From positions 1-33,616 of the forward strand of contig JASHUS010000131.1 of NCBI GenBank assembly GCA_030039865.1: DNA of 33,616 bases, written 5' to 3'. The notes under the pieces were generated by a model. The model ran no database searches. It was not told the DNA's origin and was given only the letters and a program-made list of their open reading frames with translations. Both the position numbers and the translations under genes were made by a program. Positions 1 to 26,238 of the stretch are shown here, in pieces (the first letter of the stretch is position 1; every line of letters starts with the position of its first letter). The stretch comes from Thermoplasmata archaeon. GTDB taxonomy: Archaea; Thermoplasmatota; Thermoplasmata; Lutacidiplasmatales; UBA184.

Positions 1-876
1 CGGCGGGAGCGCGGGGGAGATCACGCCGAGGAGACCCGGTCCCCAGACGTTCATGAAGGTCAGGAGAGCGAGGTAGGCGACGATCGAGACGCCCATCAGC
101 GCGAGCGCGTACCGGACATCCCGTCGGAGGAGCCCCTCGCGTAACGCCGTCCACCAACCGGCGAAGGCGCCGCGGGGGCCGGGGGAAGCGGGGGTCGCGG
201 GATCCGTACGTCGCCAGGGCCGGCGGAGCCCCAGCCCAACGAGGGGCAAGAGGAAGAAGGCTCCGATCAGGAAGGTGAAGATCGGCGCGACCTCGATCGT
301 GAGGAACGAAAGGAGCGCGACGAAGAGGCCCAGCCGGTACCGACCCGCGACCCAGAGCGCCGCGAGCGTGAACATCTCGAGCGGGAGGAGCGTCTCGAGA
401 TGGAGCGAGAATGCGTCCCCGAGGTAGCTGGGGGCCCAGACGAGGAAGATCCCCGCCGCGAGGAGGGCCTTCCAGCCCGAACCGGTGACCTGCCGGGTGA
501 GCCAGTAGAGCGGGACCGCCGAGACCGCGACGAGGGCGGATCGCAGCACGAACAAGGTGATCGTCGAGGGGGCGAGCGCGTAGAACGGAGTCGCGGCATA
601 GAGGACGACCCCCGGGTGCACGAGCAGGAACGAGCAGCGCGTCTTCACCATGCAGTCGTACGACTCGAAGAACGGAGCGTAGCGGTGGTACGTCGTCGAC
701 GAGACGGCCTGTGTGATGATGCCCGCGTCCGTGTTGTTGGCGAACTGGAAGTTCGAGTAGCAGGCGATGCCGGCCCAGGTCGAGACCGCAAAGAACGCGA
801 CCACGAAGACGAGGAGCCAGAACCGCGGCGTGCGCCACCGGGGCGGGCGCGGCGTCTCGCTCGATGGCGCGCTCAC
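1..876 (-). CDS. DUF2079-like polytopic membrane protein (possible GT-C-type glycosyltransferase). The C-terminal part runs off the window.
   Basis: The minus-strand frame is open from 897 down to 1 (I checked every triplet for tta/cta/tca). The first start is GTG at 876. The translation VSAPSSETPRPPRWRTPRFWLLVFVVAFFAVSTWAGIACYSNFQFANNTDAGIITQAV...VHPGVVLYAATPFYALAPS...FSLHLETLLPLEMF... is multi-TM and resembles the DUF2079 family from memory. It is absent from the ORF track because it is edge-truncated. Confidence 0.55.
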   Translation of the reverse strand, partial: MSAPSSETPRPPRWRTPRFWLLVFVVAFFAVSTWAGIACYSNFQFANNTDAGIITQAVSSTTYHRYAPFFESYDCMVKTRCSFLLVHPGVVLYAATPFYALAPSTITLFVLRSALVAVSAVPLYWLTRQVTGSGWKALLAAGIFLVWAPSYLGDAFSLHLETLLPLEMFTLAALWVAGRYRLGLFVALLSFLTIEVAPIFTFLIGAFFLLPLVGLGLRRPWRRTDPATPASPGPRGAFAGWWTALREGLLRRDVRYALALMGVSIVAYLALLTFMNVWGPGLLGVISPALPP

Positions 877-17590: not shown

Positions 17591-20293
17591 GTGACGCTCA
17601 AGACGAAGGCGGGCACCCCCGCTCCGGCGACGCGATCCGTCACGGTCCCAGCGCCCGAGGACCTCGAGCTTGCGAAGGACGACGCCCTGCTCCAGTTGCG
17701 CATCGGTCGGGGCGCCCACCTGTATGCGGTGGTCCTCGCCGCGGCGTTCGCGCTCGACGGCATCCTGCTGCTCCTGTTCTACCCCAACCTCCCCTCCCTG
17801 ACGACTGGCGCGACCGGGACCGCCGCGGTCAGCGAGTCGTTCTACCTTCTCGTACCCGCGCTCGCCGGACTGGCGGTCGCGGGGGTCGGGCTCTACACGA
17901 AGTGGGACACGTACCAGCTCTGGCCCTGGGAACTCCATTTCTCCGTCACGTTCGGCGCGGTCCTTGCGAACGCGGGCCTCGTGCTCGTCTACGGGCTGCG
18001 GATCGCGGGGGTGGGTCCGTTCGCCGCTCTCTCGCTCATGCCGTGGTTCTATCCGGTCGAGCTCGCGGCGATCAGCGCCGCCTTCATCGGAGTGATCCTC
18101 ACCTGGAGCGACTGGGCGCTCCGGCAGTGGGTGAGCGCGCTCGCGGCGGTGCTACCGGTCGCGGCCGCCCTGCTCGTTTTCTTCCCGCCGTCGACCACGA
18201 CCGGCGCCTCGTCGGCCCTGGCCGTGAGCCTCTTCCTCGCGGCGATCCTCTACCTCATCTCGGGATCGTTTCTCCACCTCATCACCTCGGGCACGCGTCC
18301 CCACGAGCGCGCGCTCATCACCTCCGGACAGAGCCGGATGTTCCGGCTCGCGGACGAGATCCGGCAGAAGGAAGAGGTCGTCCACTTCCGCGAGGCGGCG
18401 GTCGTCAAGCGAGAGTCCGACGTCGAGAACAGCCTTCTCTCGATCAAGCGGCAGAACAACGCCCTCCGCGACGGGCGTCAGCAGCTCGATGACCTGGAGG
18501 AAGGCTACCGGCTCCGCTCCGACGCGCTGGTGTCCAAAGAGCGGACCTGGGCCGGACAGATCGCGACGCTCGACGCGCGAGAGCGCCTCCTCTCGGACAA
18601 GTCGAAGGCGCTCGAGCTCCGCGAGCAGGAAGTGCAGCGACTGGTGCCTCAGATCTCCGCCCGCGAGCAGCGTCTGGTCGACCAGGAGGGCCAGCTCACG
18701 GTGCGCGACGTCGACGTGAGCCGACGGGAGCAGGAGTTGGGCCCGCGGGAGCTGTCGATCTCCGAGGCCGAGCGTCGTGCGGAGGCACGACGGCGGGAGC
18801 TCGATCAGCGGACGGAGGAATTGCTGCGCCGGGAAGGGGAGGTCGCGGCGGGCGCCGCGAGCGTGGCCGGCGCGGTCGCGACCGCGGACCTCGCCGCTCG
18901 CGAGGCCCAGCTCCGGCAGCTCGAAACGACCCTCGACGACCAGAACGCCCGATTGGGCGCCACGGCGCGCCAGATCGCCGAGCGCTCCAAGGCGGCGGAC
19001 GCATCCGTCCAGCGTGCCACCCTCCGCGAGGCCGCGGCCGCCGCGCGCGAGGCCGGGGTCGCCCAACGCGAGGCCGAGCTGGCCGATCTCCTGGTCGCGG
19101 CGGACGCGCGTCGCACCGAGTACGAAGGGGCGACGCGGGACTACCAATCTCGTCTCGCGAGCCTCGGGAGCCAAGAGGCCGAGGTCGCCCGCCGGGGCGC
19201 GGACGCCGAGCGCGCGACCCGGGGTCTCGCCCAACGGGAAGCGACCCTGGCGACGCGGGAGGAGCAGGTCCGCTCCTACACCCTCGCGCTCGATCAGCGC
19301 GAGGGGGAGCTCACCGCGCGGGAGCGAGCGATCGAGGCGACCGAGGCCGAGGTCAATCTCCGGCGGCAGGAGGCCCTCCGAGGGGCCGATCTTCCGATGG
19401 CCGGACTCGCCGCCATGGCGTATGCCGCTCGCCTGGACGCACCCATGGCCTCGGCCGCTCGTCCGGCCGTGAGGACCCCGGTGACGGAGACGATCGACGT
19501 ACCGCCCCCCGCGCTCCCCGCGGAATCGACCCATCGGAGCGAAACCCTCACGCTACCGGCGAACCGGAGATTCGCGGATCGTCTACCGACCGGCACGCCA
19601 CGCCTCGACGACCTTCTGCTCGGCGGGCTGCCCGTCGGCGCGCAGGCCGCGATCGTGGGCGACACCTTCGTCGGGAAGGAAGTGGCGATCTACGCCTTCC
19701 TCGCGGAGGGCCTCAAGCGCGGCGAACCGGCGGTCATCGTCACGGCGTCGCGCTCGCCGGCCGAGATCTCCGAGAGCCTCGGCGTGGCCCTGCCGCAGTT
19801 CCGCGAGTACGAGCAGCTCGGGATGGTGCACTGGGTCGACGCGTCGGCGAGCGGCCCCGCGTCGGGCCCGAACCGGATCGTGGTGAATGGACCGGGAGAT
19901 CGGGCGGGCATCGCCAACGCACTCGGGGCGATCGCGAAGGATGGGGCCGAGGGCGAGAACCCTCCGCCGCGCGTAGCGTTCCTGGGCCTCGCGTCGACGA
20001 TCGGTCACGGCGAGGAGCGAGAGGGACTCTCGTTCCTTCAGAGCGTCGTCGGGACCCTCAAGACCCGGCGGAGCCTGGCGATGTACTCGCTCGAGCCCGG
20101 CGCCTTGTCCGAGGCGCAGGTCGAGACTCTCCTCGGCCGCATGGACGGGGCGATCGTGTTCCGTCAGGACCGGGATCGGACGTTCCTCTCGGTCAAGGGA
20201 TTCGGCGACGTGCAGACCCACGACTGGGTCGAGTGCCGCGCGACGCAACGCGCCCTGATCATCGGCTCGTTCGCGCTGGAACGGATCCGCTAG
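17591..20293 (+). CDS. Polytopic membrane domain + ~350-aa coiled coil + C-terminal degenerate KaiC/ArlH(FlaH)-like RecA-fold domain
   Basis: 900 aa with a GTG start. Hydrophobic helices span aa ~45-245. A charged heptad-like region spans aa 250-~598. The C-terminus reads LPTGTPRLDDLLLGGLPVGAQAAIVGDTFVGKEVAIYAFLAEGLKRGEPAVIVTASRSPAEI...TFLSVKGFGDV. Confidence 0.8.
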   Translation: MTLKTKAGTPAPATRSVTVPAPEDLELAKDDALLQLRIGRGAHLYAVVLAAAFALDGILLLLFYPNLPSLTTGATGTAAVSESFYLLVPALAGLAVAGVGLYTKWDTYQLWPWELHFSVTFGAVLANAGLVLVYGLRIAGVGPFAALSLMPWFYPVELAAISAAFIGVILTWSDWALRQWVSALAAVLPVAAALLVFFPPSTTTGASSALAVSLFLAAILYLISGSFLHLITSGTRPHERALITSGQSRMFRLADEIRQKEEVVHFREAAVVKRESDVENSLLSIKRQNNALRDGRQQLDDLEEGYRLRSDALVSKERTWAGQIATLDARERLLSDKSKALELREQEVQRLVPQISAREQRLVDQEGQLTVRDVDVSRREQELGPRELSISEAERRAEARRRELDQRTEELLRREGEVAAGAASVAGAVATADLAAREAQLRQLETTLDDQNARLGATARQIAERSKAADASVQRATLREAAAAAREAGVAQREAELADLLVAADARRTEYEGATRDYQSRLASLGSQEAEVARRGADAERATRGLAQREATLATREEQVRSYTLALDQREGELTARERAIEATEAEVNLRRQEALRGADLPMAGLAAMAYAARLDAPMASAARPAVRTPVTETIDVPPPALPAESTHRSETLTLPANRRFADRLPTGTPRLDDLLLGGLPVGAQAAIVGDTFVGKEVAIYAFLAEGLKRGEPAVIVTASRSPAEISESLGVALPQFREYEQLGMVHWVDASASGPASGPNRIVVNGPGDRAGIANALGAIAKDGAEGENPPPRVAFLGLASTIGHGEEREGLSFLQSVVGTLKTRRSLAMYSLEPGALSEAQVETLLGRMDGAIVFRQDRDRTFLSVKGFGDVQTHDWVECRATQRALIIGSFALERIR

Positions 20294-22200: not shown

Positions 22201-22476
22201 TCACTCCTCGCCCATGTGGCGAGGCTTCGGGATGACCTTCGGCTGATCCGCGTCGGTCGGCATCCCGGTCTTGCCCGGGACGATGTCACAGTCCCGCCAG
22301 CTGACCCCGACCGTGACCCGCGGGAAGGCGACTTTCAGCGTATAGTTCGCCAGCTTGCCGACCACGAGCCCCTGCGCCCCGACGACGAGGTTCGGGTTCA
22401 TCACCGAAAGGTCCCGCGTAAGGATCACCCGGGTCTGGTTGAACGCGATCTTCTCGAGTTCGGCCCGGTCCTCCAT
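22201..22476 (-). CDS. Small hypothetical protein (91 aa from the ATG at 22476; the track start at 22539 is less likely)
   Basis: MEDRAELEKIAFNQTRVILTRDLSVMNPNLVVGAQGLVVGKLANYTLKVAFPRVTV... has good G/C third positions. The 21 codons upstream contain tta and several A/T-ending codons. Confidence 0.5.
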   Translation of the reverse strand: MEDRAELEKIAFNQTRVILTRDLSVMNPNLVVGAQGLVVGKLANYTLKVAFPRVTVGVSWRDCDIVPGKTGMPTDADQPKVIPKPRHMGEE

Positions 22477-22596
22477 CCCCGTACGGAGGGGGCGCGAGGT
22501 CCATAACGGTGCCCCCGGACCGAGCCGGGGACGTTCCAAGTCTACTTCGGACGCGCAAGGACCGCCGAGGGCGGGCGGGCGAGTCGGTATTGGTCA

Positions 22597-22604: not shown

Positions 22605-22629
22605 GCAGGACTACGTGAGCCGCCGTAGC

Positions 22630-23295
22630 ATGCCAGCGTCTGGTGCGACGATGGAATCGGCGAGAGGTATGGAGGAGGCTCCTCCGAAAATGGAGGAGAA
22701 GCCGGAGTGGTGGGCGAGCCCGGCCGTGGTGGGGCTGATGGGTTTCGGGACGACGACGATGATCGCCGGCCTGAGCAACCTGCCGACCCCCTACAGCAGC
22801 GGGTTCGCGAACAACTGGGTCGTTTTTGGTATGGCCCTCGCGTTCGGAGGGACCGCGCAGTTCGTCGCGGGCCTGATCGCACTGCGTAAGGGGAACATGT
22901 TCGCCGGCTCGGCCTTCGTGGGATACGGGTCGTTCTGGTGGGCGTTCGTGCTGATGCTCTGGACGTTCTCGGCCGGTGCCGGTACCGGTACGCCGATATT
23001 GTACGGGATCGCCGGATTCGCGTTCATCTGGTTCCTGTTCACGTTGACGTTCCTGATCAACGCGCCCAAGCACGGATGGGGAGTCTTCCTGGTCTTCCTG
23101 TTCCTGACGATCGCGTTCCTGCTCCTGACCGTCAAGTTCTACAGCCTCGCGTCGGGCAGCACGACCTTCGCCGCGAACGCCTCGGCCAACTGGGCGGTCG
23201 GCGGGGAGATCATCTTCGACGGGTTCCTGGCCTGGTACGTCGCGACGGCGGACCTGACCGAGTGGAACTACGGTAAGAAGATCCTGCCCCACTAG
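22630..23295 (+). CDS. GPR1/FUN34/YaaH (SatP/AceTr) family acetate/succinate channel
   Basis: Six TM helices and the family N-terminal motif variant SPAVVGLMGFGTTTM. FGGTAQFVAGL and YGSFWW segments are present. The ATG at 22630 is preferred over the GTG at 22615 because of the TATA spacing. Confidence 0.85.
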   Translation: MPASGATMESARGMEEAPPKMEEKPEWWASPAVVGLMGFGTTTMIAGLSNLPTPYSSGFANNWVVFGMALAFGGTAQFVAGLIALRKGNMFAGSAFVGYGSFWWAFVLMLWTFSAGAGTGTPILYGIAGFAFIWFLFTLTFLINAPKHGWGVFLVFLFLTIAFLLLTVKFYSLASGSTTFAANASANWAVGGEIIFDGFLAWYVATADLTEWNYGKKILPH

Positions 23296-23390: not shown

Positions 23391-24104
23391 CTACTCTTCG
23401 CGGGGACGCCGACGTCGGGGCCGCTCGTCGTCATCCTCGGAGCGGTCGCGTCGGTTCCGGTCGGGGTACGCACGGCGCGTGCCCCCCGGGCGGCCCCGGA
23501 ACGGAGGGCGCGAACTTCCGCCTCCCCGGTAGTCCCGGCGGCCCTGGAAGCTCGGCCGGCCACCGTAGCGGGGGCGGGCTCCGGGTCCCTCGCGGGGGGG
23601 AAGGGTGAACCGGTTGCCGCACGAGTCGCACTCCCCGACGAGGACGCCATCGTCGCCCGTCGTGAACCGCAGCGGCGCGCCGCACTTCCGGCACGGTCGG
23701 CTCCGGGGGCCCCCTTCGGCGGAGGCGGGAGCTCGATCGCGCGGCGTGAACCGGGGTCGCTCCTCCCGAGACCGCTCGGCCCCTTCCGGACGGTAGACCA
23801 CAGTGGATTCGCAGTCCGTGCAGACGGCCAGGACCGTCCCGTTCCGACCCGCGCGGAACGCGACCGGAGCGCCGCACTCCTCGCACTCGGGCGCGTCGGC
23901 CCCGGACTCGCCGGCGACGATCACGGGTGCGCCGACCGTCGTGGCACCCCCGGGCTCCACGGTAACGGGCAGGTGCCCGGCGAGCGTCGAGCCTTCCACG
24001 TAGGCGAACTCCTTCGCGCAGGAGGGACAGGTCCCCGTTCGTAGAACGACGGCCCGTTCCGTGAACTCCATCTCGGACCCGCAGGCCGGGCAGGAAGCGG
24101 TCAT
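23391..24104 (-). CDS. Triple zinc-ribbon protein with an Arg/Gly-rich (RGG-like) and acidic C-terminal tail
   Basis: From the ATG at 24104 (alternatives: ATG at 24116, TTG at 24224). It has three CxxCG...CxxC modules (CPACG..CPSC, CEECG..CTDC, CRKCG..CDSCG). The tail reads RPRYGGRPSFQGRRDYRGGGSSRPPFRGRPGGTRRAYPDRNRRDRSEDDDERPRRRRPREE. Confidence 0.7.
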   Translation of the reverse strand: MTASCPACGSEMEFTERAVVLRTGTCPSCAKEFAYVEGSTLAGHLPVTVEPGGATTVGAPVIVAGESGADAPECEECGAPVAFRAGRNGTVLAVCTDCESTVVYRPEGAERSREERPRFTPRDRAPASAEGGPRSRPCRKCGAPLRFTTGDDGVLVGECDSCGNRFTLPPREGPGARPRYGGRPSFQGRRDYRGGGSSRPPFRGRPGGTRRAYPDRNRRDRSEDDDERPRRRRPREE

Positions 24105-24352
24105 GATCGCAGGCATCAGCCCGGCGGGGCAGATTAGCTCAAGCCTTCGATTCGGGGCGGGGGATCCCGGACCCCATCCGCCCCGGTCGGCCGAGTGTGA
24201 CCGATCGCTGACGAGTCCGGTCAATATGCCGTGGCGGTGGGTTCGGCGCTCGAGGCGCTTTCGATGGACCCGGTACGCGTCGGGCCGCGGGGCGAGAATC
24301 GTCCGGAGACGCGCCGGCCGCTCGCTCCGCCCTCCGGTCCATCTCGTACGTT

Positions 24353-25396
24353 ATGGTCGAATCGGATACTGCGCGCGCGACGATGACCGACGCGATCCAC
24401 GTCGAGGGCCTGTCGAAGACGTACAACGGGACGGTCCGCGCGGTCGACAACATCTCGTTCTCGGTCACCCCCGGCGAAGCGTTCGGCTTCCTCGGGCCGA
24501 ACGGAGCCGGGAAGACCACGACGGTCTCCGTTCTCACCGCCCAGCTGGCGCCCACCGCGGGGCACGCCACGGTCGACGGGATCGACGTCTTCCGCGACCC
24601 GGCCGAGATCAAGCGCCGGATCGGGCTCGTGTTCCAGGAGTCGACCGCCGATAGCGATCTCACCGGACGCGAGAACCTCGAGCTCGCCGCGGCGCTGTTC
24701 GGGGTCCCGCGACGGGACGTCAAGACGAGGATCGACTCGTTGCTCGAGCGCATGCAGATCGGGGACGCCGCCGATCGCCTCGCGAAGACGTACTCGGGCG
24801 GCATGCGGCGCCGCCTCGAGCTCGCGGTCGGCATCATCCACTCGCCGCGGGTCCTCTTCCTGGACGAGCCGACGCTCGGCCTCGACCCGCAGGGACGGGC
24901 CGGTTTTTGGCGGTACGTCCAGGAGCTCCAGAAGGAGAACGGGATGACCGTCTTCGTCACGACCCACTATCTCGACGAAGCGGATTCGATCTGCGAGCGT
25001 CTCGCGATCATCGACCACGGCCACATCGTCGCGACAGGGAGTCCGTCCGAGCTCAAGGACCGGATCGGGGGGGACGTCGTCACGATCCGGACCTCGCGGA
25101 CGGATGCGTCGATCGAGACGGCCCTCCGGGCCCTGCCCGGCGTCACCGCCGTATCCGTGCAGGACGGGGCCTATCGGGTCAAGGCGCCGAAGGGCGACGC
25201 GCTCGTGCCGGTGCTCGTGCAGACCTGTGTGCAGCTCGGGGTCGGGCTCAGCTCGGTGTCGCTGAAGCGACCGAGCCTGGACGAGGTCTTCCTCGAGTTC
25301 ACGGGCCGGGAGTACCGGGAGGACGGGGTCACGGCCACGGACCGGGCCGTGCGGATCGGTCAGGTCAGCCAGGCGTTCGGGAGGTCCCGGCGATGA
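24353..25396 (+). CDS. ABC-2-type exporter ATP-binding protein (DrrA-like)
   Basis: Walker A GPNGAGKTT, signature YSGGMRRRLELA and Walker B VLFLDEPTLGLD. A C-terminal accessory domain is present. An alternative start is the ATG at 24383. Confidence 0.9.
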   Translation: MVESDTARATMTDAIHVEGLSKTYNGTVRAVDNISFSVTPGEAFGFLGPNGAGKTTTVSVLTAQLAPTAGHATVDGIDVFRDPAEIKRRIGLVFQESTADSDLTGRENLELAAALFGVPRRDVKTRIDSLLERMQIGDAADRLAKTYSGGMRRRLELAVGIIHSPRVLFLDEPTLGLDPQGRAGFWRYVQELQKENGMTVFVTTHYLDEADSICERLAIIDHGHIVATGSPSELKDRIGGDVVTIRTSRTDASIETALRALPGVTAVSVQDGAYRVKAPKGDALVPVLVQTCVQLGVGLSSVSLKRPSLDEVFLEFTGREYREDGVTATDRAVRIGQVSQAFGRSRR

Positions 25397-26238
25397 TGCG
25401 GGAGCTCGGGGCGCTCACGCGCCGGGAACTCCTGCGGATCGCGCGGAATCCCCAGGCGATCGCCACCTCGCTGCTGCTGCCGATCCTCTACCTCGTGCTG
25501 TTCGGTCAGGCGTTCAACCTGAACCACATCAGCTCGCTCAGTCCCGTCCCGCTCCCGCCGTCCGTCTTCCTCGAGCTCTACCGCGGCGCGCCGTCGTACT
25601 TCTCCTACTTCAGCGCGGGGATGACCGGGTTCGTCTCGGTCACCGCCACCCTGTTCGTCGGGGCGAACGTCATCTTCGACCGGCTGTTCGGCACGCTGAA
25701 GCGGACCGCGGCGAGCCCCGCGCGCCCGAGCGTGATCTTCGGCGCCCGCCTGATCGCGGGTTCCATGCAGCCGATCGGACTCGCCTTCCTCGTCCTCGGC
25801 CTCTCGCTCCTGCTCGGCCACGTCGGCCTCTCGGGCCTCGACGTGACCGCGTCGGTCGGCGTCGTCGGCGCGCTCGAGATCGTCGGCGCGATCGTGATCC
25901 TCTCCGTGATGTTCGCGTCGCTGTTCATCGCGATCGGCTTCAGCCTGCAGCAGCCCCAGACGTACTTCGCGGTCGTGAACGCGATCAACCTGCCCGTGCT
26001 GCTCACGTCCGCGGCGCTCTACCCGTGGGGGATCCTGCCCGACTGGCTGAAGAACGTCGCCTCGTACAACCCGATCACCCTCGCCGTGAACGTGCTCCGC
26101 GAGAACCTCTTCGCGGGGGCGTCGGCCTACTATCCGTACAGCGCGGGCGTCTACCTGCTGGGCCTCTTCGGCTGGGCGATCGCGATGTTCCTGGTCGCGA
26201 CGGTCCTCGCGAACCGGGCGCTCGCGCCCCAGCGGTAG
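25393..26238 (+). CDS. ABC-2-type transporter permease
   Basis: Trimmed from the track ORF to the ATG at 25393, which overlaps the ATPase stop (ATGA). 281 aa and six hydrophobic helices. The N-terminus MMRELGALTRRELLRIARNPQ is typical of the family. Confidence 0.85.
   Translation: MMRELGALTRRELLRIARNPQAIATSLLLPILYLVLFGQAFNLNHISSLSPVPLPPSVFLELYRGAPSYFSYFSAGMTGFVSVTATLFVGANVIFDRLFGTLKRTAASPARPSVIFGARLIAGSMQPIGLAFLVLGLSLLLGHVGLSGLDVTASVGVVGALEIVGAIVILSVMFASLFIAIGFSLQQPQTYFAVVNAINLPVLLTSAALYPWGILPDWLKNVASYNPITLAVNVLRENLFAGASAYYPYSAGVYLLGLFGWAIAMFLVATVLANRALAPQR

Follow-up and report, generated by a model that had tools for sequence, protein, structure and literature searches.

The zinc-ribbon fold, and the general idea of joining zinc ribbons to a basic disordered region, are already known. 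In the eukaryotic proteins FUS, EWS and TAF15, a disordered region rich in Arg, Gly and aromatic residues lies beside a small zinc ribbon, the RanBP2-type finger, and in nucleolin an acidic tract is paired with a glycine- and arginine-rich (GAR) tract. The C-terminal ribbon arrays of type IA topoisomerases are tandem C4 ribbons on linkers, combined with a basic or RGG-containing disordered region, as in domains D5-D7 of E. coli topoisomerase I (TopoI), the free-standing arrays of COG0551 and human TOP3B. The TopoI ribbons bind single-stranded DNA (ssDNA), and TOP3B requires its RGG box in order to act as an RNA and DNA topoisomerase (PMC10969213). Here we describe an archaeal protein that shares this general plan, encoded on the minus strand at positions 23391-24104 of contig JASHUS010000131.1 from a Thermoplasmata archaeon; the whole 33,616-nucleotide stretch analyzed is referred to below as the window. 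The protein consists of three zinc-ribbon modules arranged like beads on a string, followed by an Arg-rich tail, and its charge polarity, its tail and its near-universal presence are conserved across one family of the Terrestrial Miscellaneous Euryarchaeotal Group (TMEG)/Lutacidiplasmatales. We put about even weight on its being a lineage-specific core protein of this group that would bind nucleic acid, most likely RNA or ssDNA, in a multivalent, low-specificity manner.

Three zinc ribbons and a conserved, charge-patterned tail

The gene is a complete coding sequence of 237 codons with a stop codon at 23391-23393 and no internal stops, and its translation is identical to that reported in a first-pass annotation of this DNA, which had called three similar zinc-ribbon modules. 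CxxC pairs begin at residues 5, 26, 74, 95, 138 and 159 and group into modules of a single spacing, C-x2-C-x17-C-x2-C (cysteines 5/8/26/29, 74/77/95/98 and 138/141/159/162), each followed by a short beta-strand. When profiles of the individual modules, built from 48 homologues, were compared with one another using hhalign, ribbon 3 aligned with ribbon 2 at 97.2% probability (E = 3.8e-11) and with ribbon 1 at 97.7% probability (E = 1.7e-12), and it is this agreement between profiles that identifies the modules as true repeats and the triplication as real, not a chance arrangement of cysteines. The Cys4 ribbons would be expected to bind zinc. The reading frame stays open upstream as far as a TTG at 24224 and includes a second in-frame ATG at 24116; because homologues begin with M-x3-C-P-x-C-G, the ATG at 24104 is the likely start. 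The gene is present as a single copy per genome.

An AlphaFold2 model calculated with the family alignment predicts three separate beta-ribbons, with predicted local distance difference test (pLDDT) values of 83-94 in the ribbons and of about 50 or below in the linkers and throughout the tail (Table 1). Ribbon 3 modeled alone is predicted to form a three-stranded ribbon with a pLDDT of 86.7. This ribbon is the most conserved of the modules, with a mean column identity of 82% and 15 invariant columns, R, F and N among them; the invariant residues follow the pattern P-C-R-x-C-G...G-x-C-x-x-C-G-N-x-F-x-L-P-x-R. Ribbon 2 is the least conserved of the three (67%, compared with 72% for ribbon 1 and 82% for ribbon 3), and in the linkers and the tail composition alone is conserved.

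Table 1 Parts of the triple-ribbon protein and the element upstream of its gene, in window coordinates.
Feature	Coordinates	Strand	Residues	Net charge	AlphaFold2 pLDDT	Description
Ribbon 1	23985-24104	-	1-40	-2.5	82-88	CxxC-x17-CxxC plus third strand (KEFAYVEG); mean column identity 72%
Linker 1	23895-23984	-	41-70	-3.2 (mean)	44-53	Predicted disordered, acidic; length 27 ± 3
Ribbon 2	23787-23894	-	71-106	-4.3 (mean)	87-94	CxxC-x17-CxxC; acidic; column identity 67%
Linker 2	23706-23786	-	107-133	+0.4 (mean)	45-46	Predicted disordered, mixed Arg/Glu
Ribbon 3	23592-23705	-	134-171	+2.6 (mean)		Basic; near-invariant PRxRPCRxCGAPLRF...GECxSCGNRFTLPPR
Disordered tail	23463-23591	-	172-214	~+9	43-47	Arg/Gly/Pro/Ser/aromatic, predicted disordered
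Terminal motif	23394-23462	-	215-237			Acidic patch SEDDDE, then poly-Arg block RPRRRRPREE
Upstream box	24130-24138	-				GCTAATCTG in the window; (G/C)TAA(T/A)GAGG in relatives; ~32 nt before the ATG; probable TATA-like element

The full tail (residues 172-237) is 66 aa long and 31% Arg. When the C-termini of the roughly 1,100 proteins of the same genome were ranked by Arg content using stop-anchored windows, its C-terminal 74 aa came out highest (genome mean 0.10, sd 0.053). Composition and charge statistics were gathered from 86 full-length homologues, in which the tail measures 65.6 ± 4.3 aa, carries a net charge of +11.2 ± 1.3 and contains on average ~20 Arg, 14 Gly, 7 Pro, 5 Ser, 5 aromatic residues and 0.8 Lys. 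The tail had initially been described as RGG-like and rich in RG/RGG repeats. It is indeed Arg-rich and rich in RG, GR and aromatic residues, but it contains a single literal RGG and no canonical RGG box (the family averages 1.5 RGG, 4 RG and 3.6 GR per tail, with at least one RGG in 67/86), and "RG/GR/aromatic-rich" is therefore the better description. Eukaryotic RGG boxes are defined by di- or tri-RGG, which the one RGG of the window tail does not provide; the divergent homologues P0224 and P0231, by comparison, have many.

The same annotation had the tail as disordered and ending in an acidic and then a basic stretch, and this is borne out both by the low pLDDT values and by the terminal sequence. 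The terminal motif is found in essentially all members of the family, usually as DDDDxRRKRRRR(D/E)(D/E) or a close variant. A C-terminal signal shared with other proteins was considered and rejected, as a search of the genome found no other protein with an acidic patch and a poly-Arg terminus. The tail gives no match to Pfam or NCBIfam at E ≤ 10, and an origin in DNA tandem repeats was set aside when no such repeat was detected in the underlying DNA.

Codon third-position bias, which had been offered as support for coding throughout, does not hold in the tail: the GC contents at codon positions 1/2/3 are 0.84/0.73/0.79, placing GC3 below GC1, compared with 0.69/0.64/0.85 in the ribbon region. 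The tail frame is genuine all the same, because length, net charge and terminal motif are conserved in homologues; the tail is kept in more than 100 of them, and its frame is conserved across the family. Taken together, these patterns suggest that the tail is under selection for bulk properties, namely length, net charge, aromatic content, low Lys and the terminal motif.

Charge is distributed along the protein with a fixed polarity. Ribbon 1, linker 1 and ribbon 2 together have a mean charge of -10.2 and are negative in 86/86 homologues, and ribbon 3 with the tail has a mean charge of +13.8 and is positive in 86/86. In the window protein, segregation of charge is above that of shuffled sequences, with a sequence charge decoration (SCD) z-score of -3. 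The same plan is carried much further in the divergent homologues P0224, P0231 and P0236, in which linker 1 has turned into poly-Asp/Glu, the SCD z-scores reach -12 to -14 and the terminal acidic/basic motif is retained; P0224 and P0231 have, in addition, RGG repeats in linker 2 and a tail drawn out into a long GGGR/Y tract. Because divergent members exaggerate the plan instead of losing it, the charge pattern looks like a feature under selection.

A small family confined to one archaeal lineage

A word-indexed search of clusters at 90% identity returned 289 homologues of 198-296 aa, most of them without a name and a few with generic ones ("hypothetical protein" or zinc-ribbon labels). A HMMER profile search of 1.84 billion representative proteins gave 170 matches at E ≤ 1e-3 and 106 at E ≤ 1e-30, nearly all of them end-to-end and 220-260 aa long. 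Judged from these searches, the family is small and closed. No longer or fused forms were found, and the sole apparent short form, P0122, is a miscalled start, since ribbons 1 and 2 lie in frame upstream of it.

Of the 59 genomes that represent the window's own family (f1, TMEG/Lutacidiplasmatales) in a 401-genome sample of the class, 58 carry the gene, and the one genome that lacks it is 89% complete. Beyond family f1, the sample yields marginal, ribbon-only matches at E > 1e-4. The carriers are metagenome-assembled genomes labeled "Thermoplasmata archaeon" from soil and peat, including Candidatus Lutacidiplasma silvani and a Candidatus Lutacidiplasmatales archaeon; this TMEG group of acidic soils is without a cultured member (PMC9287336). 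The sequencing runs that contain the stretch are peat DNA metagenomes, four of which, all from one study, hold most of the sampled words, and no RNA runs are among those listed. An origin in viruses or defence systems was considered and rejected, as PHROGs yielded only weak generic ribbon matches, the best of them to an HNH endonuclease family at E 1.4e-5, and PADLOC yielded none. We found no curated family or published paper describing a triple-ribbon family of this kind. The family, with its triple-ribbon block-polyampholyte architecture and fixed terminal motif, thus appears to be undescribed, as does its place among the core genes of one uncultured archaeal family.

Public gene calls for the family need correction. 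Entries are unnamed or generically named and many are truncated at the N-terminus: in P0002, P0031, P0055, P0110, P0122 and many more, the start is placed at an internal Met or Val and the first zinc knuckle or whole ribbons are dropped, and length comparisons made from such calls mislead. P0002 (202 aa), the call nearest to the window's own, begins at residue 36. Separately, P0244 and P0254, from a 5.4-kb ENA metagenome contig, represent either a distant relative (profile E 1.2e-14) or an analogue. They are Lys-rich, with acidic linkers (PAPAPVVEE) and three near-identical ribbons of the form CKxCGGxL...GDIFLVCExCGKKYKL, and at the C-terminus they carry an amphipathic helix where the RG tail would be.

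Among curated families, Pfam DZR (PF12773, double zinc ribbon) is the only one to score above its cut-off (30.5 bits against 27.3, E = 4.1e-7, over three stretches), and it is a generic structural label without a function. Several other families fall short. DUF7351 (PF24042) reaches 29.3 of the required 31.2 bits, with profile positions 3-35 of 177, the ribbon, being the only part matched; Zn_ribbon_Top1 (PF01396) scores 22.6 bits for the whole protein and 20.2-20.6 per module against a cut-off of 32; and zf_Tbcl (PF13451), whose cut-off is 24, reaches 20.4 bits with the whole protein and 13.9-16.1 with single modules. For the LysW/ArgW families, TIGR01206 scores 14.4 against 53.2 bits and NF041070 13-16 against 75 bits, and TIGR04272 is absent among the matches listed at E ≤ 10. 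A match to a known family with a function other than nucleic-acid binding, which would have spoken against the initial proposal, was not found in the Pfam and NCBIfam scans, either with the whole protein or per module.

By sequence and by shape, the nearest neighbors seem to be the ribbon arrays of type IA topoisomerases, although always weakly. Free-standing Zn_ribbon_Top1 arrays and a complete topoisomerase I are among the weakest significant profile matches, and all ten shape neighbors in the ESM Atlas (10/10) carry Zn_ribbon_Top1, at template modeling (TM) scores of 0.20-0.28. Foldseek found no match in the PDB to the whole model at E ≤ 1e-3 (best E at least 1.9e-3); its top rows are Rpb9 and TFS4, with E. 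coli TopoI (4RUL, 9GDA) in weak rows as well. With a model of a single ribbon, VIA returned Elf1/ELOF1, ZPR1, NrdR, TFIIS, TopoI residues 653-700 and Rpb9 at Z 3-4.5. The ESM feature search gave a best score of 0.83, which is below its trust level.

Key differences separate the window protein from the topoisomerases. Topoisomerase arrays have a second knuckle of the form GCSxYPxC, read as GCSGYPxC in the genuine arrays P0250 and P0253 and in the lineage's own topoisomerase, whereas the corresponding knuckles of the window protein are G(T)CPSC, (V)CTDC and GECDSC. Topoisomerases also contain a Toprim/catalytic domain, while the window protein stands alone without it, and only the window protein's family has, in this comparison, an acidic N-terminal half and a terminal acidic/poly-Arg motif. 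The possibility that the protein is a detached topoisomerase C-terminal domain was rejected because the topoisomerase IA of the archaeal family keeps ~4 ribbons and a basic tail of its own. These topoisomerase IA genes (L088 and L090-L092, in genomes G140, G010, G380 and G340) are worth recording in their own right: some of the C-terminal ribbons have degenerate cysteines, and the tail that follows is 60-80 aa long and rich in Lys, Arg, Pro and Ala, so that the same design of ribbons plus a basic tail occurs a second time in these organisms.

The eukaryotic proteins resemble the window protein in joining an Arg/Gly/aromatic region to a zinc ribbon and, in the case of nucleolin, in an acidic tract paired with a GAR-like tract, a likeness that is clearest in P0224 and P0231. 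They are not homologous, as no zf-RanBP, RRM or other common domain is among the Pfam matches listed. Mini-proteins of the zf_Tbcl, zf_Tbcl_2 and TIGR04272 families share the CxxC-x17-CxxC spacing, have Gly-rich tails and are the best ESM feature neighbors, if weak ones (0.76-0.83); however, the "probable treble clef" of zf_Tbcl has a helix, whereas the AlphaFold2 models of the window protein are predicted to be all-beta and three-stranded, with no helix. LysW is the best sequence match of solved structure to ribbon 3 (E = 0.004) and to ribbon 1, having a similar ribbon of the form CPxCGaxL...G.lv.C..CG, but it carries an EDWGE motif that the window protein lacks, and the window gene has no lysine or arginine biosynthesis genes in its context.

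A putative nucleic-acid binder and its alternatives

What we infer about function (nucleic-acid binding, a division of labor between the two halves, and condensate behavior) can be set out as a simple scheme. Binding would be the task of the C-terminal end, made up of ribbon 3, which is basic and highly conserved, and the Arg/Gly/aromatic tail, and the two acidic ribbons with the acidic linker 1 would provide a counter-charged N-terminal half. This acidic half may fold back on the tail, resulting in autoinhibition or competition with nucleic acid, or it may act between molecules, on the tail of another copy or on a different basic partner. The outcome would be a chaperone, or a scaffold that bridges molecules or forms condensates.

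The suggestion made in the first-pass annotation, that this is a candidate RNA- or DNA-binding protein, gains from the comparisons in one respect and not in another: the nearest relatives by profile, fold and shape are ribbons of nucleic-acid machines, but the matches are weak without exception, lying below family cut-offs or reaching only TM 0.2-0.28 or Z ≤ 4.5. That weakness counts against nucleic-acid binding, as do three further points. Zinc ribbons mediate protein-protein contacts too; the protein as a whole is only mildly basic, with an isoelectric point of 8.8 and a net charge of +5.5; and no neighbor travels with the gene family-wide across 46 loci, which leaves no link to a pathway.

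A more ambitious version of the proposal is that the protein is a convergent archaeal counterpart of the acidic-tract/GAR proteins (nucleolin, FUS), a self-associating block-polyampholyte that would create a condensate-like phase with RNA or the nucleoid and at the same time serve as the missing chromatin or ribonucleoprotein organizer of the Lutacidiplasmatales, which are without histones and HU. In this full form we consider it improbable.

Its chromatin element can also be taken separately, with the protein as a lineage-specific nucleoid-associated protein (NAP) that coats or bridges double-stranded DNA in archaea without histones and HU. The Diaforarchaea lost histones at their root, and Alba as well, and then repeatedly gained lineage-specific NAPs, which are usually encoded in single-gene operons (PMC7613761), as the window gene is. 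The histone fold (PF00808) is found in 0/41 and HU/HTa (PF00216) in 0/41 genomes of family f1 (G010, G105, G140, G340, G380 and 36 others), and MC1 and Sul7d are found in 0/5 near-complete genomes of the family. Because it is near-universal in family f1, lineage-restricted, single-copy, monocistronic in the window and equipped with a +11 tail, the protein is a reasonable candidate to look at. However, Alba is present in 41/41 of the family f1 genomes and could fill the role (the Alba of the window's own genome, G000:C104:3619-3807, has no RG tail), the low net charge and acidic N-terminal half are unlike classic NAPs, and mesophiles may invest little in chromatin (PMC7613761). Histones are also nearly absent across the class (4/251 genomes), in agreement with the loss described for the Diaforarchaea (PMC7613761) but leaving no complementary pattern specific to family f1; this class-wide scarcity, together with the universal Alba, weakens the notion of a replacement for histones lost specifically in that family. 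On balance, we regard a NAP as an outside chance.

Two further alternatives are less probable again. The protein could be an adaptor for protein-protein contacts, with ribbons that attach to RNA polymerase or another such machine, in the manner of the Rpb9/TFS and Elf1 ribbons, and charged disordered regions that act as tethers without binding nucleic acid directly. The top rows of the structure searches, Rpb9 and TFS4 from Foldseek and Elf1/ELOF1 and TFIIS from VIA, point in this direction, and a reference cited in PMC10969213 reports that the E. coli TopoI ribbons bind RNA polymerase. These scores are at the level of any generic ribbon (E at least 1.9e-3, Z ≤ 4.5), however, and it is difficult to see why a +11 tail would be conserved in a protein with no polyanionic ligand, so we give the adaptor little credence. 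About as doubtful, in our view, is the other suggestion of the first-pass annotation, a ribosome-associated protein, whether a factor for assembly or hibernation or a lineage-specific ribosomal protein, in which the ribbons and an Arg-rich extension contact rRNA. Several archaeal ribosomal proteins are built as a zinc ribbon with an Arg-rich extension, and the weak matches include the eS27 and L44e ribbons. Archaeal ribosomal proteins are also described as having basic motifs that resemble nuclear localization signals (bioRxiv 10.1101/671966). Yet these ribbon matches are generic ones, ribosomal proteins do not typically have an acidic N-terminal half or long disordered linkers, and at the loci surveyed the gene has no linkage to ribosomal or translation genes.

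Least probable of all, and very unlikely in our estimation, is a metal-storage or redox protein whose tail holds an inorganic polyanion (thioferrate-type iron-sulfur material or polyphosphate) or whose Cys4 sites bind iron, for although Cys4 knuckles do not allow zinc and iron to be told apart from sequence alone and the Pfam scan includes a weak match to the PknG rubredoxin domain, the tail matches neither the IssA/DUF5320 family of Arg-Gly tail proteins nor any other Pfam family at E ≤ 10, there are no metal-sulfur or polyphosphate genes nearby and no conserved context, and PMC9287336 describes the host lineage as aerobic or facultatively anaerobic.

The combination of zinc ribbons, an acidic tract and an Arg/Gly/aromatic tract in this protein follows the same principle as eukaryotic nucleolar and stress-granule proteins. 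It is a compact, expressible candidate with which to ask if, in archaea, disordered regions of patterned charge are what drives nucleic-acid binding or condensation. The lineage itself, the TMEG/Lutacidiplasmatales of soil and peat, is of interest in this regard, as the Diaforarchaea took on different chromatin proteins lineage by lineage (PMC7613761).

Gene neighborhood and upstream element

The gene is convergent with a gene for a GPR1/FUN34/YaaH (acetate) channel at 22615-23295 (+) and divergent from an ABC-2 exporter operon at 24353-26238, the first gene of which lies at 24353-25396 (+); placed between these, it is monocistronic in the window. A HAD hydrolase gene is also among the neighbors. 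These neighboring genes are common to close relatives only, and a conserved operon or partner was rejected after de novo ORF clustering over the 46 loci found none.

Upstream of the start codon, 47 aligned regions show an AT-rich peak at -38 to -30, and the box listed in Table 1 lies 28-38 nt upstream in about 45/47 loci. The gene probably has in this box a TATA-like promoter element of its own. The position would fit that of an archaeal TATA element, in which case the leader would be very short or missing. A regulon defined by this box was rejected because the motif STAAWGAGG shows no enrichment across the genome, and the copies that occur elsewhere fall within ORFs.

Two other ORFs of the window deserve mention. 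The first, at 17591-20293 (+), encodes 900 aa, with a KaiC/RecA-type ATPase match at residues 666-755 only and a weak coiled-coil-like match (RNase_Y_N) at residues 528-591; it is 55-58% identical in relatives and may be over-extended. The second, at 22201-22539 (-), encodes 112 aa with no Pfam family and is 78-89% identical in relatives, making it more conserved than any neighboring gene. It always lies between the HAD hydrolase and GPR1/FUN34/YaaH channel genes and appears to encode an unannotated conserved small protein.

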